DNA of 43,202 nucleotides. Source: Halocafeteria seosinensis. Taxonomy: Eukaryota. The notes beneath the pieces are model-generated. The model did no database searches and was not told the origin of the DNA. It saw only the letters and a list, made by a program, of their open reading frames with translations. Positions 23,867-43,202 of the stretch are shown here, in pieces. Positions within the stretch are counted from its first letter, which is position 1. Every line of letters begins with the position of its first letter. The stretch is from the NCBI GenBank assembly GCA_001687465.1, contig LVLI01000118.1, forward strand, positions 124,001-167,202, given 5' to 3'. Position numbers and translations under genes: made by a program.

Positions 23867-24086
23867 AGTGCATGGATATCCAGGTGTTATGAATAGGACA
23901 CTGGATATCAACGGAGGGAGGTGTTTGTTTTCCGGACGGTCCAGACGGTCCTGTCGGAGGCACACTGGGGGGCACAGTGCCCGGGCACTGTCCCACCTCC
24001 CACCGGGGACCCACCCACTCCCATCCCACGGGCTTAGCGCCCGGATCTCCGGGCTTGGAGCCCGGTCAACAAACAACCACCTAGAC

Positions 24087-25700: not shown

Positions 25701-25723
25701 GTTGTACTTTTGTAGTTCACTCA

Positions 25724-26080: not shown

Positions 26081-26259
26081 CCCGATGAAACCAACAGGTT
26101 GAAGAGGGTCCTACCAGGAATTCGTGTGCTGCAAACACAATTCTCGTCCATATCTCACGCTCATATTACACCCCGAATAGCTAAGCGCACTATCAATCTA
26201 GTACTTACACGACACTGAATGTATTGTCAGTGGACATTATGTTATGGGCATCCGAATAC

Positions 26260-26915: not shown

Positions 26916-27120
26916 CAGGAAAATTGCCCCATGTTGTTCGCGGCTATATCTCGATATTGGATGGACGTATCCAGATTCCAAGACTAGATTTGGAATCTTT
27001 GTTAAAATGCGGCTCAGAAATGGTATCGCATGTTACATGAAGTGACCTAGGGATGGAAATACAATTTTACCCGTGGGTAAAATATATTTTTCCCGATCTG
27101 GGCGATTTGTCCCGCTCACC

Positions 27121-27828: not shown

Positions 27829-28909
27829 CGTTGAACTTGAAGTTTGACTGTAGCAGGCGTAGGTCGCCGATTCGATACTGCTACAGTATTAGGACTTCCA
27901 TTATTTACTGAGTTGTTATGACTGAGAGTGGTATAACAATCCCGATCTGTACCCGTACCTTCGGCTTCGCCACGTGCTGAACGGCGCTGTGGACGATTTC
28001 CATTATTTACGGAGTTATTATGACTGAGAGTGGTATAACAATCCTGAACTGTACCCGTAGCTTCGCTTTCACCGTGAGGAGAACGGCGCTGTGGATCGCT
28101 GCTTATCGATTCGCTGGCTACGTGAACATCTGGTACTGTACGAGTACCACAATACAAATCTGACTCCGACGTAGGATGCTCTTGTGGAGTATCACTTCCA
28201 ACGACGTACGCGGCATCTGTAGAAGTTAAGGATTCTGAAACAGCCAAAGAACTACGAGTGGTGCTACTGGTGGTACATCCCTGATTACCTCCAGTCAGTG
28301 CACCCAGCATCTGCTTGTTGTGTCGGCCTTCAGCTGTCCCTTGTTCGCTCGGATAGGGATCATCGGTGCATGATTGTCTCCTCCTACGTGATTGGGAACG
28401 ATTTTGCGCTTCCTCAACCAGTACCTGTGTCCGCCGTTCAATGATGCCCAATTCTCCGAGGATTTCCTTTTGGTCCTCGCAACGGGCAACACGGTTAACA
28501 TAATCGTCTACATGCTGCAGATGTTTTCCAGTCGTTTGTCTATCGCGGCGTTTATGAGATCGCCTGGAAGACGTCCTGGGATTTGACGATTCGGTTCCTC
28601 TTGCTTGCCTGCGGAAGAACGTGTCGGGGATTGCGTGGATGGCATTATGGGGTACTGACAAGCCTTCGTTGTTGGAGCGACGTTGCTCTCCAACAGAACC
28701 ACAAATGTTCGCCCGTTCCACGATCTCCGGCCGTTTATATTGATCCGGTATGCTCCGGAAGAATTCCTCATTCTGCAGCTCTGTTGCTTCCAGCAGTTTC
28801 CTTGTTACCTGAGAGATGGATACCTTCTTAATGTTCCCAAGATGCTTTTTTTGAAAGTCGTTATTCCACGACTCAACCCGGGCGGTGGTGGTAGGTTGGG
28901 ACACAAGTC
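27729..28909 (-). pseudogene. C-terminal part of a MULE-type transposase plus disordered linker, 5'-truncated
   Basis: TTTARVESWNNDFQ resembles the TTNxxESxN motif carrying the catalytic Glu of MULE transposases. It is preceded by a splice acceptor (ttctgtcag). There is an internal 102-bp duplication at about 27899-28092, and the ORF is adjacent to a Ulp1 domain. Confidence 0.6.
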
Positions 28910-28943
28910 CTGACAGAACAAGTTAGAACTCTCTTTCTATTCC

Positions 28944-29318
28944 TTAAGGAATTTCATCCTGATCCACAAATAAGGAATTTTTTAAATCACCAAAACATTT
29001 AATTATATTACTAATTTTTTGGGATTCTCGTGGTTGAGTGTGTGGTGGTGCGTTAAGAGCAAACAAACCTTTAGGGGTAAAAAGAAAAACATCAGGTAAG
29101 TTATCAAAGAGTAATTGTATACGGCTTAATAGTACCAAATTATCATCAGTAATTTGCTTTTCATACCTTTTAATTTTATCTAATTTCTCACCCCATTCAT
29201 AACGGTGATTTGGACATAGAAATTGATAATCAGAATTTAGTAAAGTGTCTAAACAATTGGGGGGATGTAATACTACTATATTATGCTTAATACTATACAA
29301 AAAATTATCTATGTTCAT
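28944..29318 (-). CDS. Hypothetical viral protein
   Basis: Intact AT-rich ORF. The likely start MNIDNF directly follows TATATA and the element's 38-bp motif. Confidence 0.6.
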   Translation of the reverse strand: MNIDNFLYSIKHNIVVLHPPNCLDTLLNSDYQFLCPNHRYEWGEKLDKIKRYEKQITDDNLVLLSRIQLLFDNLPDVFLFTPKGLFALNAPPHTQPRESQKISNIIKCFGDLKNSLFVDQDEIP

Positions 29319-29357
29319 TATATAAAATGTTTTTGAAAACATTTTAAATCTTAAAAC

Positions 29358-29433
29358 ACAGATGCTTTAAAAACCATCTGTAATACTTCAAACTTACAGA
29401 TGCTTTGAAAACCATCTGTATTACTTCAAACTT
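29358..29433 (-). promoter_or_regulatory. Two tandem copies of a 38-bp promoter/operator-like motif
   Basis: acagatgcttt(a/g)aaaaccatctgta(a/t)tacttcaaactt occurs twice. Related copies lie at 31578-31614, 31638-31660 and 32615-32648, always upstream of ORFs. Confidence 0.7.
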
Positions 29434-29469
29434 AAACTAAATTATAGCATGTGTTTACCGTGGTTTTAA

Positions 29470-29556
29470 GCTTGTAGTCCGAAGCTACAATGACCGAGGC
29501 GTCATTGAGCTTTCGCTTGTAGTCCGACGCTACAATGACCGAGGCGTCATTGAGCT
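29470..29556 (-). terminator. Duplicated 42-bp double-hairpin unit at the 3' end of a gene, putative transcript-end signal
   Basis: gcttgtagtccga(a/c)gctacaatgaccgaggcgtcattgagct occurs at 29470-29511 and 29515-29556. Stems are ttgtag/ctacaa and caatgac/gtcattg. It abuts the stop codon of 29555..29962. Confidence 0.5.
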
Positions 29557-29962
29557 AACCTAGTAAACCAAACGTGGCAACATTACCAACATCACGAGCT
29601 AATCTACCAATATTTTTGGCATCACCTCCGCCTTTCTTTTCATATAATCCTTCCTGTTTTACAATGTGTGAAGCTTTAGGTAGTGAAACACCCCTAGCTT
29701 TCATGACCTCTTTAACTATATCTCCTCTATTACGGAGGCTCTTGTTTTTTCTAGTGCCAGATTTAGCACTTTTCTTACCTTTAGCACCTCCAGACTTACC
29801 TGCTCCAGCTAAGCCTTCAAGAAATCCACTGAATCCTCCCCCGATTTTTGAAACCTCTTCTATAAATTCATTTCCTTTTCCGGCTTTATCCAATTCGTCA
29901 TAGAGTTGAGTCAGAAGTTTCTTAGCATTGGCTTTAGTTAGCTTTTTTCCTTTACCTGCCAT
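29555..29962 (-). CDS. Small basic (Lys/Gly-rich) putative virion core or DNA-condensing protein
   Basis: Very basic. Contains RGDIVKEVMKARGVSLPKASHIVKQEGLY, a motif type I recall from virophage/PLV-like genomes, and three GG sites. Confidence 0.7.
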   Translation of the reverse strand: MAGKGKKLTKANAKKLLTQLYDELDKAGKGNEFIEEVSKIGGGFSGFLEGLAGAGKSGGAKGKKSAKSGTRKNKSLRNRGDIVKEVMKARGVSLPKASHIVKQEGLYEKKGGGDAKNIGRLARDVGNVATFGLLG

Positions 29963-29974
29963 ATTTCTTATATA

Positions 29975-30850
29975 TTATATGTGAATATTTTGTTTTCCTA
30001 ATCTTTCTTTTGTTTTTTGATTTAATAAGTCTACAGTTTTCTTTTCTAGATCAGATATTTCTTTTAAACTTGAATTATCTAGAATTTGGTTCAATTGTTT
30101 GACAAGTTTTTTATTTTTAGGATATTGTCCGAAACTAATCCAGTACCATTTTTTCACTCCCTCTAAAGCTGACTTAAGGTGAGAAGACCTTATACCGATT
30201 TTTTCTTGCTCTAACAAAGTTATTAACACATCTAAAGATTCCCTAATTTGATGTAAAGAACCTAAAGCTGGATCGTTTAAGACTTCCAATATTTGGGAGT
30301 TTTCTTTATTTTGTTTTTGTTCTAACATATAAAATCTCTTTAATGCTTTATAATACTGTTTTTCTTCTATTTTTTCGTTATAATCCTCTTTTAAAGTCGT
30401 CTTAATATTTTTGGTTGATTTACCTGTATGAAAGTCAATTACATTAGTAAACTCATGAAACTGTCCCGTACTAGGTAGAAAACCTATTAAGTCTATCTTA
30501 AATTTTGATCCTGTATCTTTAATAGCTGTTGTGAATTTTACATTATCTTTTTTACCCCTTATAATATCTTCAGGACTCCATCTTATAGGTTCTCCATTCT
30601 TTTCACCTGCTTTGATATCTGTAATCCAGAGATTGGGTTTCTGTTTTATTTCGTTTATTTTTTCCTTTAGTTGTGTCCAGACTTTTGTAGCTGAAATATT
30701 TTTAGGTATTTTTTCATTCAAATCGTAGTCCATTGTATAAATTAAGTAAGGGTTTTGTTGAGAACCAACTAATTTCGCTTTGTTGGTAAAGCTCAGAAGA
30801 TTCATATAACTTTTCTCCTTAGTGGTCAAAAATAATTTACGTTCTGACAT
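29975..30850 (-). CDS. Putative Pol-beta-superfamily nucleotidyltransferase
   Basis: LVGSQQNPYLIYTMDYDLNE fits hGS-x(9-13)-DhD, and FKIDLI is a candidate third Asp. Helical C-terminus. Likely start MSERKL. Confidence 0.6.
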   Translation of the reverse strand: MSERKLFLTTKEKSYMNLLSFTNKAKLVGSQQNPYLIYTMDYDLNEKIPKNISATKVWTQLKEKINEIKQKPNLWITDIKAGEKNGEPIRWSPEDIIRGKKDNVKFTTAIKDTGSKFKIDLIGFLPSTGQFHEFTNVIDFHTGKSTKNIKTTLKEDYNEKIEEKQYYKALKRFYMLEQKQNKENSQILEVLNDPALGSLHQIRESLDVLITLLEQEKIGIRSSHLKSALEGVKKWYWISFGQYPKNKKLVKQLNQILDNSSLKEISDLEKKTVDLLNQKTKERLGKQNIHI

Positions 30851-30913
30851 TAAATCTTTATAGTTAACTGAAAGAAAAACCATTTTAAACCATATGACTA
30901 TGGTTTCTTAAGC

Positions 30914-31270
30914 TTAACGCACCAGTTTTTTGACTGTCCGACTATAAACTGGATAAACAGTCATTTTGTGATTAATGTTACCCAAATCACACCAGCTTTT
31001 ATAAGCATCTTTGCTTTTTACAGGTTCAATTTGATAGTAATATTTCTTTTCCCAAGTAAAACTTCTATAAATCATTAAAGGAATGGGTAATTTAAATTCG
31101 TTTGGTGGCTTATTTTCTTTCTTCATCCAAGCTCCAAAAACAGGTCTAGAAGCTACATATTCTATTTTTTCTACTTTGTCATTAGATTCTAATTTAGGAT
31201 GAATAATATAATTTGGAGTTTGCTGAAGTTTTAAACAATCCTCTTGTCTTAAAGCTAACCAAGGAAACAT
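30914..31270 (-). CDS. Hypothetical viral protein
   Basis: 118-aa ORF packed in tandem with its neighbours and sharing their AT-rich codon usage. Confidence 0.6.
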   Translation of the reverse strand: MFPWLALRQEDCLKLQQTPNYIIHPKLESNDKVEKIEYVASRPVFGAWMKKENKPPNEFKLPIPLMIYRSFTWEKKYYYQIEPVKSKDAYKSWCDLGNINHKMTVYPVYSRTVKKLVR

Positions 31271-31283
31271 TACCCAAATTTCT

Positions 31284-31565
31284 TTATCTTTCCGTCCTAC
31301 ATATTAACTGTTTCTCACCCATTAGGTCTAGTCTTACTTCCACATGATGATAAATCTTTCTTAACCAATCGCTGATTTCCCTTTTCTTAGGTAGTTTTTT
31401 CACTTTTAGTGAAAACCAAAGTGGTAAAACCTTTTCTTTATCTTCCGTGTCAACATATTCATAGAGTGGATAACAACAACACCCTTCTAAACTCGTGTTA
31501 ATTTCCGATCTCTTTAAAATCAGTTTTCGCTCTCTTTCATCATAATGACTATAATTCTTTTCCAT
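31284..31565 (-). CDS. Hypothetical viral protein
   Basis: Likely start MEKNYS, directly downstream of the 38-bp motif and TATAAG. Confidence 0.6.
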   Translation of the reverse strand: MEKNYSHYDERERKLILKRSEINTSLEGCCCYPLYEYVDTEDKEKVLPLWFSLKVKKLPKKREISDWLRKIYHHVEVRLDLMGEKQLICRTER

Positions 31566-31693
31566 CCTTATATTATAACAGATGCTTTTAAAAACCATCT
31601 GTATTACTTCAAACGCAATAAAGAATTTGTTTCTTTCTTTTGAAGTTTAAGATGGTTTTCTTTTCTTATATTATAAGAAAGAAAAGCATATTA

Positions 31694-32611
31694 ATGAATA
31701 AAGCTTTGAATATTATCGCACAATTAACACAAGGCGTAGATGATGCCACTTCACTGAGAAAAAAGCCTAAAAAAGAAGGTAAAAAGCAGAAAAAGGAGGA
31801 AGGTAAGAATAATGATAGATTTGTAGGTCGGGAAAGTAAACCTGATTTTGATAGTAATAGCTGTAAAACTCCCAGTGATGAGGTTTATTTTCAAATTGCT
31901 AAAGCTTCCTATCAACTTCCTAAAGAAAGACCTAAACTAATAAATCGTACTTATGAATATCAAAAAGACCTTTCCACTAAAGCTGTTTGTCTCTATATTG
32001 ATAAGTTAAATAATTCGGCTGTGCTGGGATTCAGAGGAACCAACGTAAGTGACCCAATGGATTTAGTAGCCGATACTAAAATCGCTTTCAATAAATTAAA
32101 TGAAACTCCACGCTTTCAAGATGATGCTCAAACAGTTAGCAAAATTTTGGAAAGTTTTAAAGATAAGGGTTTTTGCTTTTTCTCCGTGGGTCATTCACTG
32201 GGCAACGCCGTTCAGCTACAAATAGATCGTGAATTTGGTCGCTTTATTAAAAGTGGTAGAGGATACAACGGTGCTCTTCAGCCTAAGGATGTGCTAGAAT
32301 CACCGAAAAAGTTTAATTATTGGTATATCAAGGGTGATCCCTTGTATCAATATTCGGGTCGTATGTTAAGAAGAAACTTATCTGTTTTTCCTAGAGTTTC
32401 TAAGAAATCAGTTCAAAATCATGCTTTGGATAATTTCCAAGGTTTGACTAAGCAAGATACTTTAAAGAAAGGGGGTGCTAAACCTTCAAATAAACCTCCC
32501 ACTAAAAAGGATTTAACACAAATTGGATTCTGTTCTAATAATCAGAAAAAGATAAATGGCTTGCCTAAACCAGTCTATGATTTTCAAAAGACATTAACAC
32601 AAGAAAATTGA
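31694..32611 (+). CDS. Class 3 lipase-like alpha/beta hydrolase
   Basis: Motifs VLGFRGT...DLVAD, nucleophile elbow VGHSLG, GDP and NHALDNF give a Ser-Asp-His triad. Likely start MNKALN. Confidence 0.9.
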   Translation: MNKALNIIAQLTQGVDDATSLRKKPKKEGKKQKKEEGKNNDRFVGRESKPDFDSNSCKTPSDEVYFQIAKASYQLPKERPKLINRTYEYQKDLSTKAVCLYIDKLNNSAVLGFRGTNVSDPMDLVADTKIAFNKLNETPRFQDDAQTVSKILESFKDKGFCFFSVGHSLGNAVQLQIDREFGRFIKSGRGYNGALQPKDVLESPKKFNYWYIKGDPLYQYSGRMLRRNLSVFPRVSKKSVQNHALDNFQGLTKQDTLKKGGAKPSNKPPTKKDLTQIGFCSNNQKKINGLPKPVYDFQKTLTQEN

Positions 32612-32663
32612 GGATTTTGAAGTTTAAGATGGTTTTTTAAAAGCATCTTATATAGAGTAAAGA

Positions 32664-35600
32664 ATGAGTGTATCTCAGATTATTAACCAAAGTAATAATA
32701 AGATCTATAAACACCTAATACCTACCAAACATTCCTCACATGTTTCTAATATTACGGTGTCTGCTAGCAATGCTCCTACTTGTATAAAAAATTCGGCGGA
32801 TTTTGTCTGTGATGGAACAGCTGATCAGGATGAAATCAATCAAGCAATTCAAAGTGCTAATGACGGTGATCGCATTATGTTATCACAAGGCGAATTTGTT
32901 ATTGACGACCAAATTCAAATAAATACGTCAGTTAGTTTTTTGGGTGTTAATCGGGAGAATACTACTATTAAAGTAGATGATAACGCAACAAGTGATAATC
33001 ATTGGTTAAACGTCACAGCCAATGGTTTACTCATTCAGGATATGACCTTAGACGGTAATAATGGAAACCGAGGAGTTGATAATATTAATGATGTTCTTCT
33101 CCGTTTTCAAGGTGTTAACTTTTCTACTATTCAAAGATTGAGGCTCCTTTCAACCTCATCTTATGAAATTTATGTTGAGAATTGTAGTCATTTACTACTA
33201 ACCCAATTATATGTTGACAATACTGATTCTCAAAAAGGTTCCGCGGTTTATTTTAAAAGCTTGAATGCTACCTCGAATGTCTCTTTAACTCATTGCTATT
33301 TTGACATGTTAAACCGAACATGTATTGAAACCGATAGTGTAAACTCTCTAAGCATAGATAATTGCGAGGTACACAATGGTAATCGTCCTGTATCGTGTTC
33401 ACCTACGGATTCTAATGTTAGAGTTAGTAACTGTCTCTTTGATGGATGTACCAACATTCATTATTCAGGCAATAGAGGTGTGTTTTCCAATAATCAATTT
33501 ATTGGAACTAATGGGGCAATAACAATTTTCAACAATAGTGGAACTGGTAACGAAGATTACATCAATGGTTTATATTCTGAAAATGATCAGAGCGTAGTAG
33601 GAGTCATTCACATTGACGGAGGGTCTCATAATTCTGTATCTGATATAGAAATTATTAATCCAAATCACACAGCTATTGTGGTTGACAAAGATAATGGTAG
33701 CGGTTTCCCTTCTGTTGTTGATATAAATTCTGTTAAGGTTGATGAGACTGATAATTCAGCCTTAGACATTAAAAATTTAACTACAGGTTCTTTTTCCGAT
33801 ATCCTCCTCACTAGTGCTAGTAGTGCTACAGCTGTTTCTACTCAAAGCAGTTCAAGATTGAGATTTGATGGATTCCTATTGGTAGATGTTAACAAAGGTT
33901 TTAATGTGGATAGCACAACCAATAGTCAGTTTGGTGATATTAGGATCAAAAATTGTACTCAAGGTGGATTTGACCTTCAGAACAGTTCCACTGGTAATCA
34001 GTTTGCTAATATTAACGTTGATGGAGCTCTTAGAGGATTTTTCCTAACAAATACCGCCAACGATAATACATTTAGTCAAATTTCAATGTATAGTTGTACA
34101 CAAAACTGTATCCAAAATAGCGGAACTGAAAATAATTTTTCGGGTATATTTTGTTATAATACTGGTAGTGGAACTCCAACTGATAACAGGGGTGTTATAG
34201 AAGATGAAGCGAATGGATCCAATACTTGGCGAAATATTAGTATTTTACAAATCAGTTCCTCCTATGATTTTAAACCTCAGGGAGCTAATGGCTTTTTCCT
34301 AGGTTCAAATAACTCAACTCTTGAAAATATTTACATTGATGCCGATGTTACTGGAACTTTTGACCGTTCAGAGACACAAGGAGTACAAGCCCCTCTTTTA
34401 TCTGGTATTTACATAACCACCAATCAAGATTGTAACATATTTGGAGCTAAAATTTATAGGTGTCTAGAATTCGGAGTTCAGGTAGGAGTTGCTACCAAAA
34501 ACTTAAATTTAGAATCATCTGTTTTTCAGGCAAACACTAACGACGCTAATGAAGCTCTTGGCTTATATTTGAATGGTAATGGAACGCCTATTGAAAATAT
34601 GATTATTAAAAGTTGTGTATCCCAGAGCAATGACAAACAATTCAAAGTTGGTGGTAGTAATGCTGATTATGATGTTAGCGGAAGTACTGGGATTCAACAA
34701 CCATCAGAATCTGTATTGTCTAGTCTTCGTCACGGTGCTAGAGCTCACTATAATTTCAGTGGTTCAAATCCCCACAATGATAAAATTGGAACTTATGATG
34801 CTACCTTAGGTAGTCAAAGTTTAGTTTCAGGTAAAATAGGACAAGGTATTCAAAACGCATCCGGTTCTGATTATGTCTTAAATGGGGGTGGTTCACGTAT
34901 AAGTGGAAGTCTAATTACTGACCCTTTCACAATTAGTTTCTGGTATCAAACCCCTGATGTTAGTTCTTCAGCTATTGTTTATGCTACTGGTTTAACAGGT
35001 GATGCTTTTCGTCTTTCTCAAAGTAATGATAAACTTTCCCTCGCATCTGGCAATGGTTCGGATGATACAACCTCATTTTTGGAAACAGGTGTCTTTTATT
35101 TACTTACTGTTACTTACGACGGTTCCGATGCTCGTCTTTATGTAAATGGTGAGTTTAAGATTAGTCACAGTTTTTCAAGTTATGAATCAGCCGGTGGAGC
35201 ATTTTTGAACAGTACACTTAATTGGATCGTTGATGAAGCTTTAACATTTGAACGAGCCATTTCAAACGGTGAAATTAACATGATATATAATGGTGGTTCT
35301 GGAACACAAGCTCATATTAATCACGATTGGCATACTAGACCCGCTCAAAGTAATGTTCATATGAAAAGTAACCGAATTACTAACCTTGCTGACCCTACTA
35401 GTACCCAAGATGCTGTTTCAAGAAATTACTTAGAAGCTGGTATTATGGTTAATGATATTGATATGAATTCAAACCAGATTAATAACCTAAGTGACCCAAC
35501 TAGTGCTTCAGATGCTGTCTCCAGAAATTATTTAGAAGCTGGTAATATGGCTAATGCTCTAGATATGAATTCCAATCAAATTAATAATCTTTCTTCAGCT

Positions 35601-37427
35601 ACATCCGGAACTGATGCTATTAATAGGAATGATGGTGATTCTAGATTCTTAAGACGAGATGGACAAAATACTATGGATGGAACACTTAGTTTTTCAACTG
35701 GTAACAGTATCACTTTAAATGATACAGATATGGATGCTGGTTCTAATCAAATTAATAATTTGTCTGATCCTACTTCAGCTCAAGACGCTGTTTCCAGAAA
35801 TTATTTAGAAGCTGGTAATATGGCTAATGCTCTGGATATGAATAGCAACCAAATTAATAACTTATCTTCAGCTACAAGCGGAAGTGATGCCATTAATAGA
35901 AATGATGGTGATAATAGATTTCTCCGTCGGGATGGTAATAATACTATGGATGGAACACTTAGTTTTTCAGCTGGAAATAGTATTACCCTAAATGACACAG
36001 ATATGGACGCTGGTTCTAATCAAATTAATAATTTGTCTGATCCAACTTCAGCTCAAGACGCTGTTTCCAGAAATTATTTAGAAGCTGGTAATATGGCTAA
36101 TGCTCTTGATATGAATTCTAATCAAATTAATAACCTTGGTGAACCTGTTCAAAGTGGGGATGCTGTAACAAAAAACTATACGGATGCTCTTTCGGGTATT
36201 CCGCAATTAAGACGGGGTGCTAGAGCCTATTATAGTTTTGATGGAACTAATTCCTATGCCGATTCCATCGGAACGCATGACGGAACAAATAATGGAACAT
36301 CTGTTGTGTCCGGTAAAATTGGGCAAGCCATTGCTTTCACGGCGTCGGATCATGTTGATATCGGTGATGCGATGTCTTTTGGATCAGGTGATTTTTGTAT
36401 TTCCTGTTGGTTCTATCCCACAACGTCTTCACCTAATGCTCAGTATCTTTATACATCGGCGAAGGATTCTAATGGAGATAAGTTTGAATTAAAAATGCAG
36501 ACCGATCAATTAATATTACTGACAAGTGTAAATTCAAATTCATCGATATCCGCTAAATCTTCAGCATTATCCCTCAACACCTACCATCATGTGTTGTTAA
36601 ACAGAACGGGCTCGGATTGGAAACTTTATGTTGACAGGAGTCTGGAAATAGATGCCACATTAAGTTCAGGAAGTATTTCATCTGGATCGGATACAAGTTC
36701 GTTGGGACGTAATTTTAGTGATTCCATCGCAAGCAGTGGAGAACTGGATGAAGTGGCTTGTTGGGATCGTGTTTTATCGGCCGAAGAAATCAAATATATT
36801 TACAACAACGGAGCGGGTACCAATGATTTCCAATCCTTCGGGTGGTATTCCCTTCCGGCTCAATCCAATGTGGATCTCAATAGTCACAATATCGTCAATG
36901 TAGCCGACCCGACATCCTCAGATATGGCCGTCAATAGGAACTATCTTCACGGGGGCAACATGGCCAAGTCGCTTGACATGAATAGTAATACCATAATCAA
37001 TGTAGCCGACCCGACATCCTCGGATATGGCCGTGAATAGGAATTATCTTCACGGAGGCAACATGGCGAATTCGCTTGACATGAACGATCAAGAAGTGGTT
37101 AGCGTCGCCACGGTGACTTCCAATGCCGTGACCATTAATGACGATTCCTTCCATTCCTTCACACCAACCCATGAAGTGGGTAAGTTTCTTATCCGAACCA
37201 CTGCGTCCAACGGGGCTATGTTAGAAATACTGTACAATGTTTCAGGGGATAATATTTCCCAAACCAATGTACTAAGAAGTACAATGTTTGAAACGGCCGT
37301 CAATCAAACGCCTTCAGGGACGACCGGTACAGACGGCAAAATCACAGTCTCAACCGGCTCATCCCAGTTACACATTGAAAACCGCTTGGGGTCTTCCGAA
37401 ACCTTTACCTTTTTATTGTTAGGCTAA
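32664..37427 (+). CDS. Large fibre/tailspike-like protein: pectin-lyase-type beta-helix, two LamG/concanavalin-like domains and stalk repeats
   Basis: ADFVCDGTADQDEINQAI..IMLSQGEF is followed by parallel beta-helix repeats. Two LamG-like modules (GKIGQ, FTISFW/FCISCW, LYVNG/LYVD, DE..F/W.R.S..EI..IYN). About nine DM.SN.I.NL.DPTS..DAV.RNY repeats. Confidence 0.85.
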   Translation: MSVSQIINQSNNKIYKHLIPTKHSSHVSNITVSASNAPTCIKNSADFVCDGTADQDEINQAIQSANDGDRIMLSQGEFVIDDQIQINTSVSFLGVNRENTTIKVDDNATSDNHWLNVTANGLLIQDMTLDGNNGNRGVDNINDVLLRFQGVNFSTIQRLRLLSTSSYEIYVENCSHLLLTQLYVDNTDSQKGSAVYFKSLNATSNVSLTHCYFDMLNRTCIETDSVNSLSIDNCEVHNGNRPVSCSPTDSNVRVSNCLFDGCTNIHYSGNRGVFSNNQFIGTNGAITIFNNSGTGNEDYINGLYSENDQSVVGVIHIDGGSHNSVSDIEIINPNHTAIVVDKDNGSGFPSVVDINSVKVDETDNSALDIKNLTTGSFSDILLTSASSATAVSTQSSSRLRFDGFLLVDVNKGFNVDSTTNSQFGDIRIKNCTQGGFDLQNSSTGNQFANINVDGALRGFFLTNTANDNTFSQISMYSCTQNCIQNSGTENNFSGIFCYNTGSGTPTDNRGVIEDEANGSNTWRNISILQISSSYDFKPQGANGFFLGSNNSTLENIYIDADVTGTFDRSETQGVQAPLLSGIYITTNQDCNIFGAKIYRCLEFGVQVGVATKNLNLESSVFQANTNDANEALGLYLNGNGTPIENMIIKSCVSQSNDKQFKVGGSNADYDVSGSTGIQQPSESVLSSLRHGARAHYNFSGSNPHNDKIGTYDATLGSQSLVSGKIGQGIQNASGSDYVLNGGGSRISGSLITDPFTISFWYQTPDVSSSAIVYATGLTGDAFRLSQSNDKLSLASGNGSDDTTSFLETGVFYLLTVTYDGSDARLYVNGEFKISHSFSSYESAGGAFLNSTLNWIVDEALTFERAISNGEINMIYNGGSGTQAHINHDWHTRPAQSNVHMKSNRITNLADPTSTQDAVSRNYLEAGIMVNDIDMNSNQINNLSDPTSASDAVSRNYLEAGNMANALDMNSNQINNLSSATSGTDAINRNDGDSRFLRRDGQNTMDGTLSFSTGNSITLNDTDMDAGSNQINNLSDPTSAQDAVSRNYLEAGNMANALDMNSNQINNLSSATSGSDAINRNDGDNRFLRRDGNNTMDGTLSFSAGNSITLNDTDMDAGSNQINNLSDPTSAQDAVSRNYLEAGNMANALDMNSNQINNLGEPVQSGDAVTKNYTDALSGIPQLRRGARAYYSFDGTNSYADSIGTHDGTNNGTSVVSGKIGQAIAFTASDHVDIGDAMSFGSGDFCISCWFYPTTSSPNAQYLYTSAKDSNGDKFELKMQTDQLILLTSVNSNSSISAKSSALSLNTYHHVLLNRTGSDWKLYVDRSLEIDATLSSGSISSGSDTSSLGRNFSDSIASSGELDEVACWDRVLSAEEIKYIYNNGAGTNDFQSFGWYSLPAQSNVDLNSHNIVNVADPTSSDMAVNRNYLHGGNMAKSLDMNSNTIINVADPTSSDMAVNRNYLHGGNMANSLDMNDQEVVSVATVTSNAVTINDDSFHSFTPTHEVGKFLIRTTASNGAMLEILYNVSGDNISQTNVLRSTMFETAVNQTPSGTTGTDGKITVSTGSSQLHIENRLGSSETFTFLLLG
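35511..36135 (+). repeat. 273-bp (91-aa) tandem coding repeat, about 2.3 copies
   Basis: Units start at 35511, 35784 and 36057 (DAVSRNYLEAGNMANALDMNSNQINNL...). Confidence 0.9.
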
Positions 37428-37470
37428 ATACCGCCATTTCTTTTTTTCGGCCATGAATATAGAAATACTC

Positions 37471-39213
37471 ATGGACAGGGAACTCATGAAAAAACTCAAT
37501 CTAACACCCGATGATTTACGCAATCCATCCGCCCCCGATCCAAGGTTCTTGGAGCAACCGCATGACCCATGGCGGGAATATACCGCCCCTTCCACCCGTG
37601 ACAATATTAGTGGCCAGTATCGCTTCCTATCGGACACATGGCATATCGCTGAACCGTCGCAACACCGCACCTCTGAATTTGATAACCCTATGTATCAGGC
37701 TAAATACAATCTTCTTCGGGGGCAATCCGAATCCGGTTCATACACGTATCCCAAATACCATCCTAGCCAAACCCTTCCCGAACAACCTCTCAACTTTTAT
37801 GATCAAATGAAAGAGACGTTCGGTGCCCCGAATATAGGCTTATCGTCGGAAGAACAGCAACGAATGGATGTGGAAGCCAACAAAGAACGAGGCGATTTCA
37901 TCATCGCCAAAAAAAGAGGTATGGAAAAAAAAACAGGAGGAAGTAGAGATCCCAAAGCGTACGGGCAACTTCAGAACCTAATCCGGCAACACTTTGAAAA
38001 ATTTGAAGACGAGGAAGATCCAGAAGAAACCGACGAACCCACCAATCCCGATGAATTTGCCAAAACGTTGCCTCTCACCGAAAAGCGGGGCGAAGTATTA
38101 CAACTGAAGAACATGATTCAAGAAGTTCAGGCCAGTCTAGGCCGAGGAAAGAGCGGAGCGTCGTTCAGTGCCCTTCGGATGGAAACGCTCAATAATGGAC
38201 TTCGTACCTTAGAGCAACATGGTCTTGAAATGAAGAAGAAAAATCTAGAGGAAATCAAACGCATGTTAGAGCAATCCATCAACCCATTAGCCGATAAAAA
38301 CAGTCTCTTCACCGGTAGCAATTTGCCCAAAATTCGGGTCATTCTGATCGCTTACATCTATGTCTTGAAATTGCTTCAAACGTACAATAACAAGAAGCGG
38401 AAAGACGCTCTAGATGCGTACATGGAAGATCTTGTGGATGCCAAAATGCCTCAGTTGATGTCATTTCTGAAGCAACTACAAAGTTGGAGTCGGCTGTCGT
38501 CGGATACCATTCGGAAACTGACGCTTAGGCTTCGCAATATCAAGGAAAGCGATTTACGACGTGAAGAAAAACAGCAAGAAACCGACCAGCATATTCCTAG
38601 CGATGATAAACAGAAGGCTTTGGATCAATTCAGTAAAGGGCAACTTTCTATGAATCAGTTGAAAAAACACAATATCAACAGAAACGATCTCATTTGGAAA
38701 CTTCGGCAACTCAATCTTTCCACCGATGGTACAGTCCCACAACTCAAGGAACGTCTTGAAAACGCTCAGGCTCAACCCAATACCAGTGGCCAAGCCCAAC
38801 CGGATACCAGTGGTCAGGCTCAACCGGCGGAAGAAACGCCCGTCGGTGAAGAAAAGACCGATGAAGAGGATCAACAACAAGAGCAAGAGCAAGGTGGTGC
38901 GAAGAATCCATTCAAGGAGGTCAAGAAAGGAATTGATTTCCTGAAAAACCTTGGAAACGCCGGTAAAGATCATGGGATCGGGTCAAAAGACTTTCAAAGT
39001 GAAGAGGAAATTGATGCCCTTCAATTGGCCAGTCCGGAGGAGAAGAAGAAGATGAAGCAGGAATTCCGGAAGAAGCAAAAGCAAAAGAAAGGTAACAAGA
39101 AAAAAGGCAAGAAGAAAGGCGGTAATCAATCGGATTTCGCCCCGATGCCAATGCCAAACTTTCCAAACAAGCAAGGCGGTAAAACGTCATCATTGGCCAA
39201 ACGCCTGAAATAA
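37471..39213 (+). CDS. Putative virion core protein with a SAP-like DNA-binding motif and basic tail
   Basis: RNDLIWKLRQLNLSTDGTVPQLKERLE is SAP-like. Lys-rich C-terminus and four xGG sites. The start is either 37453 or 37471; the latter follows TATAGA. Confidence 0.75.
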   Translation: MDRELMKKLNLTPDDLRNPSAPDPRFLEQPHDPWREYTAPSTRDNISGQYRFLSDTWHIAEPSQHRTSEFDNPMYQAKYNLLRGQSESGSYTYPKYHPSQTLPEQPLNFYDQMKETFGAPNIGLSSEEQQRMDVEANKERGDFIIAKKRGMEKKTGGSRDPKAYGQLQNLIRQHFEKFEDEEDPEETDEPTNPDEFAKTLPLTEKRGEVLQLKNMIQEVQASLGRGKSGASFSALRMETLNNGLRTLEQHGLEMKKKNLEEIKRMLEQSINPLADKNSLFTGSNLPKIRVILIAYIYVLKLLQTYNNKKRKDALDAYMEDLVDAKMPQLMSFLKQLQSWSRLSSDTIRKLTLRLRNIKESDLRREEKQQETDQHIPSDDKQKALDQFSKGQLSMNQLKKHNINRNDLIWKLRQLNLSTDGTVPQLKERLENAQAQPNTSGQAQPDTSGQAQPAEETPVGEEKTDEEDQQQEQEQGGAKNPFKEVKKGIDFLKNLGNAGKDHGIGSKDFQSEEEIDALQLASPEEKKKMKQEFRKKQKQKKGNKKKGKKKGGNQSDFAPMPMPNFPNKQGGKTSSLAKRLK

Positions 39214-39243
39214 TTTTCTTTCGTGTCCATGATATACGAAGGA

Positions 39244-39534
39244 ATGGAGATTGTCAGTTATGTTTTCATTGGGCTGTTTGGAAGTGTCTCAGCCGTAGGA
39301 ATCCCGCTTTTCTATCGGTATTGGCGACGATCCAATTGCTCATCCAGTTGTACCAACAGTGATTTGGTCACCACCATTTGCCGGTTCAGTACCGAGGTTC
39401 GGAAAAATGGCAATTCTAATATAGAGCAAAATGGTGAATCGCCAAAAAATCAAGGAACTAAAGCAGATAGCCCTCAGCGAATCCCAGATACAAAACAACA
39501 CGACCAAAAACATTCCAATCCTGACGTACAATGA
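39244..39534 (+). CDS. Small membrane protein with an N-terminal TM helix and a Cys motif
   Basis: Hydrophobic IVSYVFIGLFGSVSAVGIPLFY followed by RRSNCSSSC. Overlaps the protease gene. Confidence 0.6.
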   Translation: MEIVSYVFIGLFGSVSAVGIPLFYRYWRRSNCSSSCTNSDLVTTICRFSTEVRKNGNSNIEQNGESPKNQGTKADSPQRIPDTKQHDQKHSNPDVQ

Positions 39535-40015
39535 AATTTATGGCAAGTCACTGGATCGCTTGACCCAAAATGGGGCGTGTATTTTGTTGTATCTGATTGA
39601 AGAGAACTATGGCCATTGGGTTTCAATATGCCGGATCCCTAAAGAGAATGAAGCCGATCATTTGATCTACTTTGATTCCTACGGCGAATATCCGGATGAA
39701 CCCCTGACATGGGCGACGCCTGAGAAAAACGAAGAACTGGGGCAGAGTCGCCCGTATTTGTTGGAAAAAATCGTAAAAAACCCTGACAGGTATGAGTATT
39801 ATTCTAATCCCTTTCCATTCCAAAACGAAGATAATCTGGATATCCAAAGTTGCGGTCGTCATCAGATTTGCTTTATTCACTATTGTTGGAATGCTGATGA
39901 CCCAAGTCTGGTGGGTTACAAGGAATGGCTGGATGGTATCAAAGAGCAAACCGGTTTGGACACTTATGACCAAGCGGTCACTCTTCTGACCGACCATATT
40001 GATGAACCGGCCTAA
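39431..40015 (+). CDS. Virophage/PLV-type maturation cysteine protease (adenain-like, clan CE)
   Basis: His-Asp-Gln-Cys order: CILLY..NYGHWV, IYFDSYG.YPD, FQ.....IQSCGRH. 194 aa. Confidence 0.9.
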   Translation: MVNRQKIKELKQIALSESQIQNNTTKNIPILTYNEIYGKSLDRLTQNGACILLYLIEENYGHWVSICRIPKENEADHLIYFDSYGEYPDEPLTWATPEKNEELGQSRPYLLEKIVKNPDRYEYYSNPFPFQNEDNLDIQSCGRHQICFIHYCWNADDPSLVGYKEWLDGIKEQTGLDTYDQAVTLLTDHIDEPA

Positions 40016-40042
40016 TAATAACACGGAAATTGCTGTTATTAT

Positions 40043-40711
40043 TCAATCGGTTTGTATAAAAGCATATTTAAATTGATGGGTGTTGCTGTCAAAACTACAC
40101 TCTATGTCAAACAGTTCTCCTCCTAGTTTATCGTTTTCATCTTCTCGCATCCATTTTGCTAATTTCCTCCAAAATTCCTTCTGATCTCGTATTATATGAT
40201 TCTTCTTTTTGATCCATTCCTCCACTGTGTAATTCCCTTTAAAACTATTAAACAGTTGAAGGCAGTCATCTGATACTTTTTCAATGACAAACGTATGTGC
40301 TTCCCCCTTCGATTCATACCGTTTAATCCGACATAAAGCAATCCCACTTGAACAATTGTCCATATTCTTTCGCAGTGAATTGAATATCGCTGTATTGATA
40401 TTTTTGTCTTGATGTGTTGGCTGGTATAAGTTTAGGGATTGCTGTACCCGATCCATCGTCTCCGGATTACAGTCGGGGTCGTAATGTTCCGGATGAAACT
40501 CTTTCTTATCTGTCAAATGACAACACGCTAAAATCCAATACAGGAGATGACCCGTATGGACACAATATGTTGGATCTGTATAAGCCTCTCCTTCCTGTAA
40601 CCCCTCGGGGAGTGATCGGAATATCTTCCACATCGCATAATTGACGTTAAACTTACCGTGTGGGGTACAAAGTTTCTTTATGACTTGGACGGAAAAGAGG
40701 TTCTGTCTCAT
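40043..40711 (-). CDS. Hypothetical protein with a papain-like Cys-His-Asn arrangement
   Basis: YCVHTGHLL ... AHTFVIEK ... LFNSFKGNYTVEEW. Likely start MRQNLF after TATAGA. Confidence 0.6.
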   Translation of the reverse strand: MRQNLFSVQVIKKLCTPHGKFNVNYAMWKIFRSLPEGLQEGEAYTDPTYCVHTGHLLYWILACCHLTDKKEFHPEHYDPDCNPETMDRVQQSLNLYQPTHQDKNINTAIFNSLRKNMDNCSSGIALCRIKRYESKGEAHTFVIEKVSDDCLQLFNSFKGNYTVEEWIKKKNHIIRDQKEFWRKLAKWMREDENDKLGGELFDIECSFDSNTHQFKYAFIQTD

Positions 40712-40798
40712 ATATGTTCTATATGAACCGGATGAAAAATTTTCTATATACCCTCCGGTCGCCAAGTTTTGAAAATTTTGATATCAAATATAGAGAAA

Positions 40799-41122
40799 AT
40801 GCCAACGGCTGAGGATTGGTGCTGGTATTACCTGAGGGACAATATACCCAAGGTGCCGGATCTCTCTCATTTTCGGGCGTATGAAATGAAAAGCCTTGAT
40901 GATGGACGCTGTTTGCTTAAATTGTGTGGTAATCGCTATCAGTATAGTTTCCACATGTGGCTGAGCAACGAAGAAAAAGAATCAAGATTGTTTGTTACGG
41001 CTCAAACTCTAACTTACCCCCGAAAAGAAAAAGCATTGGTCGAACGAGAATGGTCGATTGATAGTTGGCAGGTTGCTTTCAATAAAATGATAATTGGTGA
41101 ATTAGAGTCTCCAAAAAACTGA
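40799..41122 (+). CDS. Hypothetical viral protein
   Basis: The start MPTAED follows TATAGA by 4 nt. Divergent from the previous gene. Confidence 0.65.
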   Translation: MPTAEDWCWYYLRDNIPKVPDLSHFRAYEMKSLDDGRCLLKLCGNRYQYSFHMWLSNEEKESRLFVTAQTLTYPRKEKALVEREWSIDSWQVAFNKMIIGELESPKN

Positions 41123-41636
41123 ACCGGTCGCCACCCAAGAAAATCGTACATCTGACTTTTGTACGATAGAGAGATAGGCGGATCATTCAGGGCGGACACA
41201 TCAGAGTGTCTTGTCAGGGTGGATATCACGGCCACCTATCCACTGTCCTGAGTCCGTCTCCGACGGACTCTTGGGGTGGGACGGGTGGGCATGAGATACC
41301 CCGCCTGACTCTTCCCCTGACCATCCACTCCAAAAAAAATGGGGAGTTATGGCGAGATGGGTCTCATTCCTGCGAGTTTTCCGTCGTGTGGGAGTGCTTC
41401 GGAACTCTTGACGAAGGCTTACCTCCACCACACCACCTTGCGTCCGTCGCTAAACAGACGCAGGACACGGCATCCAAGTTCCTTTCGGAACGAACACTCT
41501 AGCAGTACTGACCCTCTCGAGCCTCTCGACCCAAGATGAGTTCATAGTTCTTTGGAGCTGGATAGATACCTCCACCTTGGCCTCATGCTATTTCGGTTGG
41601 CGGAGCTGCAGGATGTGTTAGTCCCGACTTACCGCC

Positions 41637-41855
41637 CTAAGGAATCACCCCCTGAAGGATGAAACCCCTACCAACCACATTTGGCCGTGTGGGATATCGC
41701 CACCAACTCCACTTCGCCGTCCCAAAAAACCTGTCGGTTTCGGGACTCGAACCCCAGACCCCTGACCTACTAGCAGTATGGTCAGATACCCGCCAAAGCC
41801 CCCAACACCTTTCGTCACAGGGGCCAAGGCAATAACCCATTGTGTTCTTTCTCAT
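41637..41855 (-). CDS. Possible small Trp/Cys-rich hypothetical protein
   Basis: MRKNTMGYCLGPCDERCWGLW... with TATAGA immediately before the ATG. No homology recognised. Confidence 0.3.
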   Translation of the reverse strand: MRKNTMGYCLGPCDERCWGLWRVSDHTASRSGVWGSSPETDRFFGTAKWSWWRYPTRPNVVGRGFILQGVIP

Positions 41856-41977
41856 ATCTATAGTACTCTGAATACCCCCTTGAATATTCACAACTTCAAC
41901 CGGTGGGTGACCCCCCTTGAATACATTCACAACTTCAACCAGCCGACCTCCAAAATCGTACCTTTGATAAAAGTACG

Positions 41978-42310
41978 ATGACACTTTTCTGTCATGGATG
42001 ACAGAAATGAAAATCGTACTTTCATTTCTGTCATAACCCCTATACCTCTATACCACCGTCGTTCCCTGTAAATTTGTACTTTGTTAATAATCGTATGACA
42101 CTTATGACAGAAATGACAGAAATTTTTGGAGGTAGGTTGTTATTAATCATTAATAAAATTATTTTTTAATTTTCTTAAACCTCAACCGGCTGAAACCGAA
42201 GTGTCATCTGTCATTTCTGTCATAGTTTTCTGTCATCCCACTAAAAGACCGAATTGAAGGGTCGTTTAGAGGGGGGTCGGGTTATGACAGAAATGACACT
42301 TTTCTGTCAT
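41978..42310. repeat. ATGACA/TGTCAT iteron array (right copy)
   Basis: About 14 hexamers. 34 bp (42089-42122) are identical to 25931-25964. Confidence 0.9.
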
Positions 42311-42335
42311 AAGCCTAATCGCCCATTGATGGTTG

Positions 42336-42464
42336 CCTGAATACCCAAATAGAGTCGCCCATTAATGGGTCACCTGAATATTCCAATTGGTGGTCGCCTG
42401 AATACCCAAATAGAGTCGCCCATTAATGGGTCGCCTGAATATTCCAAGTGAGGGTCGCTTGAAA
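42336..42464. repeat. 61-bp tandem repeat with GTCGCC motifs and cccattaatggg palindromes
   Basis: cctgaatacccaaatagagtcgcccattaatgggtc(a/g)cctgaatattccaa occurs at 42336 and 42397. Confidence 0.9.
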
Positions 42465-42475
42465 AATATAATTAT

Positions 42476-42710
42476 AAAAACAAAATGTAAATTTTAAAAA
42501 TGTAAATATAAAAACAAAAATGTAAATTTTAAAAATGTAAATATAAAAACAAAAATGTAAATATAAAAACAAAAAATGTAAATAAAATTGGCCAAATTGT
42601 AAAATTGGCAAATATAGCCAATTTTGGCCGAATTTTTAATCTAATAAAAATCGTAATAAAGTCCAATTTTAAAATCCGGTAAAAATAGCCAATTTTGGCC
42701 GATTTTTGGA
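42476..42710. repeat. AT-rich subterminal tandem repeats
   Basis: Repeated aaaatgtaaat(at/tt)/aaaaac units at 42476-42587, followed by atagccaattttggccga twice. Confidence 0.85.
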
Positions 42711-42717
42711 AAATCGT

Positions 42718-42767
42718 ATCACCCGCGAAAATCGTAAAACAATTGTTTTACGATTTTCGCGGGTGAT
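42718..42767. repeat. Perfect 50-bp palindrome at the end of the viral segment (hairpin-telomere-like)
   Basis: atcacccgcgaaaatcgtaaaacaa|ttgttttacgattttcgcgggtgat, with no spacer and no mismatch. Confidence 0.97.
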
Positions 42768-42855
42768 CGAAGTGGACGACCAGTTCGTGATCCACTTCCT
42801 CCGTCTGACACGTCACTACTCCATCTGTGTGTGTATTGTTAATGATCTTGGAATA

Positions 42856-43202
42856 CTACTGAACAAAGGTAGAAGCATAAACAGCTACACCACCTCTCTC
42901 TCTGGGTAAGACTAACTGAAGCCATCTGCACAGTAAGTTGACATTGGACCGCATAAGCCGACAAGACAACCCTTCACGAAGACATTCCACATATTTCGTA
43001 GGATGAGATACATGAAGAGAAGCGGGCCGATGTTTAAGCTGAGATAGGAAATCCACCGCATCCTCTCCTATACCACCATATGATTGAAACGCAAAGGGGA
43101 TTAACTTCTTTCCAAGTTCTTGACAGACTGCCCCATATTTATGAACTTTCATCCGTTCCACCACTCGAGTAGCTGCGGCAGTACGAAGGTTTTGTTGGGT
43201 AC
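42856..43202 (-). mobile_element. 3' end of an RLE-type (CRE/R2-like) non-LTR retrotransposon ORF, continuing beyond the window
   Basis: AAATRVVERMKVHKYGAVC...LIPFAFQSYGGIGEDAVDFL...LSCRLMRSN is the typical restriction-like endonuclease C-terminus (E..K..KY, P.a.es.G.g). Confidence 0.75.

Follow-up and report, generated by a model that had tools for sequence, protein, structure and literature searches.

Provirophages of Halocafeteria seosinensis were described in a preprint of July 2026 (10.64898/2026.07.28.741278) as carrying terminal repeats of ∼800 bp (mean TIR, 808 bp) that end in palindromes, for which a hairpin-priming model was proposed. The same work reported 18 fragments lacking most core genes, MULE and LINE insertions and LamG genes among these virophages, a host GC content of 47 to 48%, and a virophage GC content of 35% or 44% by subtype, with 52-nt terminal palindromes given for subtype 5 (∼44% GC). 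For Cafeteria burkhardae, the accessible part of the report on EMALEs and mavirus (PMC8547959) likewise describes low-GC elements with conserved upstream motifs and retroelement invasion, including three truncated copies and one recombinant type.

We analyzed a window of 43,202 nucleotides from H. seosinensis. Its right part is likely a truncated, mosaic provirophage remnant of the described kind, likened to it by description, not by sequence identity. Set against H. seosinensis subtypes 1, 2, 5, and 6 (by description), the window combines 48.4% GC in host sequence, 34.0% and 44.6% GC in viral sequence, and a repeat of ∼820 bp. LamG genes, core-less fragments, presumed MULE and LINE neighbors, and recombined elements are shared features. 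A protease is present, as in that host's virophages, whereas its PLVs have none (10.64898/2026.07.28.741278). Relative to subtype 5, GC content is 44.6% over 36401-41900 but 34.0% in the left part, the palindrome measures 50 nt rather than 52 nt, and only one end survives. The main text of the preprint mentions neither a GC switch in a fibre gene nor a V21-type nucleotidyltransferase (10.64898/2026.07.28.741278). According to the accessible part of the EMALE report, truncated EMALEs retain terminal repeats on both sides, which the fragment does not, and their invader is an Ngaro retrotransposon, unlike the Ulp1-bearing element found here (PMC8547959). The mavirus upstream motif is TCTA, versus TATA(1-3)G in the fragment. 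Environmental virophages with a Sputnik-type capsid (94 IMG/VR and metagenome loci, L001-L094) have proteases of the same family at 27 to 42% identity and share ORF3, ORF6, and a short ORF2 motif with the fragment; they differ in that MCP, penton, and ATPase genes are present in many of the fetched flanks. The features of the window are as follows.

24381..25319, + strand: C-terminal fragment of a hAT transposase (PF05699, E 5.5e-7) in a multi-copy element (∼23.9-25.7 kb)
25725..26079, no strand: diverged terminal-repeat remnant without palindrome (76-84% identity to the right repeat)
26080..28924, - strand: multi-copy element bearing a Ulp1 protease (PF02902, E 2.7e-7)
28925..42767, no strand: virophage-derived fragment, 13.8 kb, probably the right part of a provirophage (GC step, gene content, loose contig ends at 28924 and 42766)
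28944..29318, - strand: ORF1, 124 aa from the second ATG, no assigned function (ORF call)
29555..29962, - strand: ORF2, 135 aa, Lys/Gly-rich, three Gly-Gly sites (composition)
29975..30850, - strand: ORF3, 291 aa, predicted V21/MG662/L544-type nucleotidyltransferase (profile, model, fold matches, locus homologues)
30914..31270, - strand: ORF4, 118 aa, no assigned function (ORF call)
31284..31565, - strand: ORF5, 93 aa, no assigned function (ORF call)
31694..32611, + strand: ORF6, 305 aa, likely lipase-like alpha/beta hydrolase, one Gly-Gly site (GHSLG motif, tblastn)
32664..37427, + strand: ORF7, 1587 aa, fibre-like protein (beta-helix, two LamG stretches, 34-aa repeats)
37453..39213, + strand: ORF8, 586 aa, charged, four Gly-Gly sites (composition)
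39229..39534, + strand: ORF9, 101 aa, hydrophobic N-terminus, overlapping the protease start (ORF call)
39431..40015, + strand: ORF10, 194 aa, predicted virophage-type maturation cysteine protease (alignment, locus comparison, tree)
40043..40711, - strand: ORF11, 222 aa, accessory gene (no Atlas match of at least 0.9)
40799..41122, + strand: ORF12, 107 aa, accessory gene (ORF call)
41637..41855, - strand: ORF13, 72 aa, doubtful, preceded by the upstream motif (ORF call, motif)
41950..42767, no strand: likely right terminal repeat, ∼820 bp, inner edge inferred (iterons, tandem repeats)
41987-42310: 9-mer iterons, within the right terminal repeat
42322-42463: 61-bp repeats, within the right terminal repeat
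42462-42710: AT-rich repeats, within the right terminal repeat
42718..42767, no strand: perfect 50-nt terminal palindrome (perfect 25-nt arms)
42768..43202, - strand: very high-copy repeat abutting the palindrome (X1 depth)

Virophage-type genes and missing core genes

The fragment is distinguished from the host by GC content (38.2%, versus 48.4% over positions 1-23900), and its 12 intronless, intact ORFs span 94.6% of 28944-41122. ORF10 is predicted to encode a virophage-type cysteine maturation protease. Residues His62, Asp82, Gln131, and Cys141 were invariant in 14/14 aligned sequences, and among the 94 loci whose protease is related, 85 encode at least one of MCP, penton, and ATPase in the flank fetched (seeds Pfam-confirmed; MCP in 55/94, penton in 59/94, ATPase in 52/94), with none of the three in the fetched flanks of the other 9. 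A quick tree (88 rows; locus ORFs of 150-260 aa, duplicates dropped), built with no outgroup from PLVs, Polintons, or adenoviruses, nested the protease among those of virophage loci. The seven closest proteases formed a long-branch clade, and the clusters looked up, for four of the seven, come exclusively from contigs of ≤5120 nt, so that no close relative was seen beside a capsid gene. The single-protein scan of viral_contigs returned no relatives of the protease, and its profile found no useful match in PDB.

A second virophage gene was identified by structure prediction. The ORF3 profile matched Megavirus MG662 (E 1.2e-6), and the alignment-based model (pLDDT 85.5, versus 37.7 from a single sequence) matched 4XUL (Foldseek E 1.8e-8, TM 0.72) and, by fold, proteins of Zamilon, YSLV5, and mavirus, which carries a structural homologue. 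Residues Gly29, Asp41, Asp43, and Asp120 were conserved. The modeled fold, as in the family of Megavirus chilensis MG662, mimivirus L544, and Sputnik V21, identifies ORF3 as a predicted V21/MG662-type nucleotidyltransferase, a virophage gene; the solved MG662/L544-family structures share 12-14% identity with ORF3, which is shorter. Homologues were detected in 21 of the 94 virophage-type loci, at most two ORFs away from the ATPase in 12 of these and immediately upstream of it in three orientation-checked loci (L020, L034, and L059); in the fragment, the break lies ∼1 kb downstream of ORF3. Neither the single-protein scan of viral_contigs nor a database search of 1576 candidates returned a relative of ORF3, and our literature search found no report linking virophages to the L544 nucleotidyltransferase.

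ORF6 contains GHSLG, which we take to be a lipase motif, and is likely a lipase-like alpha/beta hydrolase judging from its sequence. It had tblastn matches in 5 of 80 virophage-type loci and none in Pfam; iterated relatives were unreliable (motif in 3/19), and direct matches alone were counted. We assume that Gly-Gly sites in ORF2 and ORF8 point to virion core proteins. On this assumption, ORF2, Lys-rich in composition and with a short motif matched in seven ORFs of the 94 loci, is likely a core or DNA-packing protein, and ORF8 is likely a core protein by composition. ORF8 had no usable Atlas match and was rejected as a divergent capsid (K+E+Q+R, 33.8% versus 14.4 ± 1.2% in 41 MCPs; hhalign probability, 0.09%). 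ORFs 1, 4, 5, 7, 8, 9, 11, 12, and 13 had no match among the 94 loci, and ORFs 1, 4, and 5 had none in Pfam or PHROG. ORF11 and ORF12 are skipped in a relative (joint 40017-41135 in contig set X2).

The motif TATA(1-3)G preceded 9 of 13 starts; over the element as a whole it preceded 24 of the 450 ATGs, and 5000 shuffles gave no more than 5. Both the motif and the downstream start codons used for ORFs 1, 3, 5, and 6 were picked after viewing the sequences. By analogy with mavirus, it would switch on transcription only during giant-virus infection of the cell, and it is the sole sign, a suggestive one, of giant-virus-dependent replication.

Core genes were sought with HMMs built from virophage loci. 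In six-frame searches with stops read as X, the MCP, penton, ATPase, and primase-helicase models reached best E values of 0.83 to 1.5 inside the element (MCP, 0.92; penton, 1.4; A32-like packaging ATPase, 0.83), and all 52 hhalign comparisons of ORFs with core genes, MCP included, gave probabilities of ≤6.8%. No ORF matched pPolB, rve, tyrosine recombinase, resolvase, or a protelomerase/telomerase-like gene in Pfam or PHROG. The fragment lacks the MCP, penton, and ATPase of a complete virophage genome (Maveriviricetes/Lavidaviridae), and the protein-primed polymerase B and rve integrase of Polintons/Mavericks; we class it as a fragment derived from a virophage rather than as a member genome. 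As for PLVs, with profiles that were virophage derived, no ATPase was found, and ORF8, the only unassigned ORF of capsid size, is compositionally unlike a jelly roll. An earlier note, made from the letters alone, had read this DNA as an element without capsid, ATPase, polymerase, or integrase, and profile HMMs, hhalign, and Pfam agree. Its ∼13 tightly packed, intronless, intact ORFs hold as 12 plus the doubtful ORF13, and its shared promoter motif, maturation protease, and nucleotidyltransferase-like gene are all recovered here.

Mosaic composition, junctions, and terminal repeat

The earlier proposal of a fibre gene was also supported: besides the beta-helix, LamG stretches, and 34-aa repeats, ORF7 carries T7-tail-fibre-like repeats. 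Within ORF7, third-position GC is 0.23 before and 0.54 after a switch located at 36540-36807 (change point LLR, 39.4 versus ≤9.4 in 200 permutations), and because of this jump inside the fibre gene, we regard the fragment as a mosaic. Contigs of the same organism (X1) hold variants across the whole element, such as a 1257-nt contig with 37 differences, and X1 joints omit ORF1 or fibre modules. Contig sets X2-X4 show no cover of 29.9-35.9 kb, which was not counted as evidence.

At the left edge, the stop codon of ORF1 lies 19 nt from the junction, where the long ORF of the Ulp1-bearing element is severed: its frame is open from 28922, and the start is absent before it. Loose contig ends of this element fall at 26079 and 28924, and other copies continue beyond 28924. 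Iteron, palindrome, and terminal repeat are all absent from the left junction. Since it has no terminal repeat and adjoins a cut ORF, the left edge is no terminus but a break at a transposon-like ORF. We presume from its motif that the Ulp1-bearing element is a MULE; a homologue search for this label gave none. The repeat remnant at 25725-26079, 2.9 kb left of the fragment, stops where the Ulp1-bearing element begins, and it may be unrelated because it is ∼80% identical and partly in direct orientation relative to the right end. This repeat copy, the left transposon junction, and the fibre-gene GC switch were absent from the earlier note.

At the right edge, the iterons, tandem repeats (units of 61, 35, and 20 bp), and perfect palindrome noted earlier were all found. 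The 9-mer iteron occurs nine times in 41987-42310, five times in 25833-26064, and is absent from the rest of the window. The palindrome has 25-nt arms, compared with 10 nt for the next longest in the window and a maximum of 11 nt in 100 shuffles (fold z-score, -11.2); it is likely a subtype feature. The hairpin-telomere-like terminus proposed earlier stands insofar as the palindrome is able to form a hairpin; the left edge is no such viral end. Exact searches of viral_contigs with two terminal motifs and an Rfam scan over 25600-43202 returned 0 matches. Other copies of the abutting repeat extend beyond 42766 with different sequence, and X1 summed depth reaches 12,890 in the last bin, over this repeat, a qualitative value and not a copy number. 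Presumably, judging from a motif, it is the 3' end of a non-LTR retrotransposon; searches of Pfam and for other homologues gave no match for the LINE label. Paired TIRs, an integrase, and a target-site duplication (sought near 25.7 kb and 28.9 kb) were not found.

Origin of the fragment

The protease and the V21/MG662-type nucleotidyltransferase argue for the virophage origin already put forward in the earlier note. The fragment is probably what remains, on the right, of an integrated virophage; the left half, carrying the genes for capsid, ATPase, replication, and integrase, was likely lost at the neighboring transposon. A complete palindrome-ended virophage would have integrated via its own integrase, with its right end in the high-copy repeat. 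Fibre-repeat recombination would then have fused a low-GC type with a high-GC type. Later, the Ulp1-bearing transposon would have landed within or close to the left terminal repeat, of which 25725-26079 may be a remnant, and a deletion would have fused the transposon interior to the virus interior. Having one end only and lacking an integrase, this copy can probably not move. Speaking against this reading are the intactness of all ORFs, the missing target-site duplication, the lack of a close protease relative beside a capsid gene, and the nine protease loci without core genes; the 50-nt palindrome speaks against likeness to subtype 5. A described virophage type with its other half deleted, which the earlier note had named as fatal to its own proposal, is probably what was found, on the description of the preprint elements rather than on sequence identity.

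It is unlikely that the arrangement is in part an assembly artefact, in which two provirophage insertions were joined via fibre repeats or the transposon and the mosaic or the truncation is unreal on one chromosome. Copies of the element are multiple and occur in many variants, a very high-copy repeat closes the window, and only 0.57 of sampled words of 33500-43202 are present in X1; however, X1 matches the flanking pieces with 0 differences at a depth of 53-58. Partial EMALEs of C. burkhardae were mostly assembly artefacts in the accessible part of that report, but they sat at contig ends (PMC8547959), whereas the left edge here lies in the interior, between unrelated sequences. According to the accessible part of another report (PMC10120064), false consensus contigs arise frequently; against this, the 1587-codon frame of ORF7 stays open through the GC switch, and an X1 contig links low-GC with high-GC fibre sequence (35363 to 36960, with just 57 nt on the short side).

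We think it quite unlikely that the fragment, lacking a capsid gene, is maintained as a satellite of the complete virophages in this host; it would then be hairpin-copied from its palindromic end, packaged in trans, and donate shuffled fibre modules. Such mobility in trans would raise its importance, as a satellite of a virophage, and the donated modules would change the cell or giant virus to which particles bind. Slightly harder still to credit is a non-autonomous family of capsid-less derivatives, copied and packaged with proteins of complete sister elements and supplying accessory structural genes. Intact ORFs, retained promoter motifs, and the existence of sister copies would fit, yet nothing points to a left edge common to the sister copies. 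The preprint raises the reliance of some fragments on complete copies (10.64898/2026.07.28.741278), and truncated EMALEs with regenerated terminal repeats exist (PMC8547959), but here a single end is intact, the left edge severs a transposon ORF, and a target-site duplication was not found.

Hardly credible is the earlier proposal, in which a linear, hairpin-ended virus, virophage-like and undescribed, left one arm or segment here, taken up through DNA repair with no integrase involved: the perfect palindrome stops exactly at the junction, integrase and target-site duplication were both not found, the protease clade is distinct, and the terminal motifs lack exact matches in viral_contigs, but a captured hairpin end need not hold both palindrome arms, such palindromes adjoin target-site duplications in four subtypes of virophage whose complete elements bear an integrase (10.64898/2026.07.28.741278), resolvase and telomerase-like genes were not found, and the genes present form an ordinary subset of those of virophages. 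Palindrome-capped repeats, hairpin priming, and core-less fragments had already been described (10.64898/2026.07.28.741278), and the left edge, cutting the ORF of the Ulp1-bearing element, is no viral end.

As the surviving half of an integrated virophage, the fragment is a further decaying provirophage of the kind catalogued in 2026; in another host species it would add no more than one new member to that kind. In complete elements, the palindrome could prime copying as a hairpin, as the preprint proposes, and that model could readily be tested on the palindromic end. Of modest value, the fibre gene preserves a datable recombination scar together with module-number variants between sister copies.

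Setting of the viral piece

Eukaryotic host genes, one of which is represented in EukProt, fill the first part of the window, and a stack of mobile elements runs from about 23.9 kb to the window end:

1-23900: host genes, eukaryotic, GC 48.4%
from about 23.9 kb: hAT transposase fragment (PF05699), first in the mobile stack
25725-26079: 355-bp low-GC repeat, after the hAT fragment
26080-28924: element bearing a Ulp1 protease (PF02902)
28925-42767: low-GC viral piece
right of the viral piece to the window end: very high-copy repeat

Partly on the basis of sequence motifs, we take the Ulp1 element to be a putative MULE and the right-hand repeat a putative LINE. ULP1 domains have been described in Mutator and CACTA elements (PMC2528002). 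At the window start, a cluster of direct and tandem repeats (56-1050; a 76-bp tandem and pairs of 44 and 68 bp) is probably another repeat element. In host intergenic DNA, a 34-bp repeat occurs three times at 20860-21198, a stretch that also includes a 20-nt palindrome (20986-21005).

Gene content and environmental relatives

Together, twelve intact ORFs account for 94.6% of 28944-41122. The motif TATA(1-3)G, which like four of the start codons was picked after inspection of the sequence, lies within 25 nt upstream of 9 of 13 starts; across the element it precedes 24 of 450 ATGs, and 5000 shuffles never gave more than 5. The tight packing of intact ORFs described in an earlier note on this DNA was borne out, as was a common motif upstream of the genes, which that note took for a promoter. 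An intergenic repeat foldable into a hairpin (29358-29433, 31579-31616, and 32615-32663) lies upstream of several genes and includes an ATG through which naive calls extend ORFs 1, 3, 5, and 6; it may mark transcript ends, as hairpins do in Mimiviridae (PMC4402537). At 29470-29556, between ORF2 and ORF1, two 45-bp units stand in tandem, and both contain a small hairpin.

A six-frame HMM search of the element, with stops read as X, gave best E values of 0.92 for MCP, 1.4 for penton, 0.83 for ATPase, and 1.5 for primase-helicase. All 52 profile comparisons remained at or below 6.8% probability, and no polymerase, integrase, or recombinase domain was detected in the ORFs with Pfam and PHROG, in agreement with the earlier claim that capsid, ATPase, polymerase, and integrase are absent. 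Because MCP, penton, ATPase, primase-helicase, polymerase, and integrase were not found, the viral piece does not qualify as a complete virophage, yet it is clearly derived from one. Capsid-sized ORF8 was rejected as a capsid, its composition being unlike that of 41 MCPs.

The His-Asp-Cys set of the maturation protease (ORF10) was invariant in 14/14 sequences. Searches with the protease alignment turned up 283 relatives in viral_contigs, the best 80 of which entered the comparison, plus another 14 from metagenome contigs. Among 50 ORFs from five protease-bearing loci, Pfam identified Sputnik-type capsids, pentons, and ATPases; these seeded HMMs that recognised an MCP in 55 of the 94 loci, a penton in 59, and an ATPase in 52, with at least one of the three in 85/94 (the viral_contigs part being the best 80 of 283). 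A quick tree built from 88 proteases, with no PLV, Polinton, or adenovirus outgroup, placed the window protease and seven database proteins in a long-branch clade inside the proteases of protease-bearing loci. The window protease (39431-40015) is 47 to 75% identical to these seven (P0001-P0007), with 100% clade support, and those looked up occur on short contigs only; the clade is possibly an under-sampled virophage lineage.

Homologues of ORF3, the nucleotidyltransferase, occurred in 21 of the 94 loci (again with the best 80 of 283 from viral_contigs). The ORF3 family profile matched Megavirus MG662, and the ORF3 model (pLDDT 85.5) matched MG662 as well as mavirus, Zamilon, and YSLV5 proteins. 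ORF6 had matches in 5 of 80 loci (the best 80 of 283), and the fibre, ORF7, contains beta-helix, LamG, and tail-fibre-like repeats. Partly from sequence motifs, we take ORF6 to be a probable lipase and ORF2 and ORF8 to be putative core proteins. No family was assigned to ORFs 1, 4, 5, 8, 9, 11, 12, and 13 by Pfam/PHROG, Atlas, or the 94-locus comparison. ORF11 (40043-40711), which had no Atlas match at 0.9 or above, has a Cys, His, and Asn/Gln spacing that we take to be reminiscent of papain-fold enzymes. Among the environmental loci, two penton-family genes stand side by side in L044 (5340-9647); in L059 (16260-17369), an ORF adjoining the penton matches the C-terminal capsid domain only, and the capsid gene may be split.

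Ends of the viral piece

As the earlier note had described, the right end carries iterons (a 9-mer in nine copies), tandem repeats (61, 35, and 20 bp), and a perfect palindrome, which spans 50 nt at 42718-42767. Elsewhere in the window, palindrome arms reach 10 nt at most, and the longest in 100 shuffles had 11. In contigs, other copies of the flanking repeat extend past 42766 with different sequence there, a pattern that fits insertion of the virus into the high-copy repeat. The stretch from the last gene to the terminal repeat (41122-41950) is GC-rich (50 to 55%), mostly non-coding, and without a match in Rfam.

The left edge, at 28924/28925, is a break. Neither an iteron nor a palindrome is present at 28925, the long frame of the Ulp1 element starts at 28922 without a preceding start codon, and other copies of that element extend past 28924 in contigs. 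In 12 of the 21 loci with an ORF3 homologue, that gene is at most two ORFs away from the ATPase; here, the break falls about 1 kb downstream of ORF3. The repeat at 25725-26079, 76 to 84% identical to the right terminal repeat and in part direct, in part inverted relative to it, ends at the start of the Ulp1 element; it may be the former left end or a separate fragment. A search for a target-site duplication found none.

Probable history of the piece and its sister copies

This kind of remnant is already known. Among H. seosinensis virophages, 36 complete and 18 fragmentary ones have been described (bioRxiv 10.64898/2026.07.28.741278), with host GC of 47 to 48%, viral GC of 35% or 44%, and terminal repeats averaging 808 bp. 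In that study, palindromes, with a length of 52 nt in subtype 5, adjoin target-site duplications in subtypes 1, 2, 5, and 6, and the authors also report LamG genes and insertions of MULE and LINE elements and put forward a model of hairpin priming; the likeness to the window is one of features, not a sequence match. Other sources give a GC of 46.8% (10.64898/2026.06.25.734631), truncated and partial EMALEs (PMC8547959), and 74 virophage capsid genes in H. seosinensis, with assembly caveats (PMC10120064).

GC is 34.0% in 28925-36400 versus 44.6% in 36401-41900, and within the fibre gene GC3 switches from 0.23 to 0.54 at 36540-36807 (LLR 39.4 versus at most 9.4 in 200 permutations). This switch points to recombination of two types or to an assembly mis-join; mosaicism is also treated in 10.64898/2026.10.13.758929. 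We consider it quite probable that a complete palindrome-ended virophage integrated, that recombination in its fibre gene and insertion of a transposon followed, and that the left half of the virophage was then deleted, which would have left an immobile remnant. Counted against this history are junctions known at contig level rather than from reads, and an assembly mis-join is an unlikely alternative. Also counted against it are the intactness of all ORFs, the occurrence of sister copies as contig pieces, none a complete element, and the restriction to short contigs of the closest proteases looked up. That the piece belongs to a non-autonomous family mobilised in trans is somewhat less likely still, and that it is one segment of a new virus with hairpin ends is highly improbable.

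In run X1, whose contigs come from the same organism, 1152 contigs fell on 23300-43202, many of them 85 to 99% alike. Depth of exact single pieces in X1 was 53 to 58, and bins over the element summed to 121 to 1007, values that are sums and not copy numbers. Contig joints skip ORF1 (X1), ORF11-12 (run X2), or fibre modules. The fibre gene contains two LamG-plus-repeat modules of different GC (35350-37170), and in contig variants modules are skipped or repeated, with jumps from 35363 to 36960, from 36299 to 36761, from 37171 to 37425, and from 36848 back to 35553, suggesting that modules may have been shuffled among copies.
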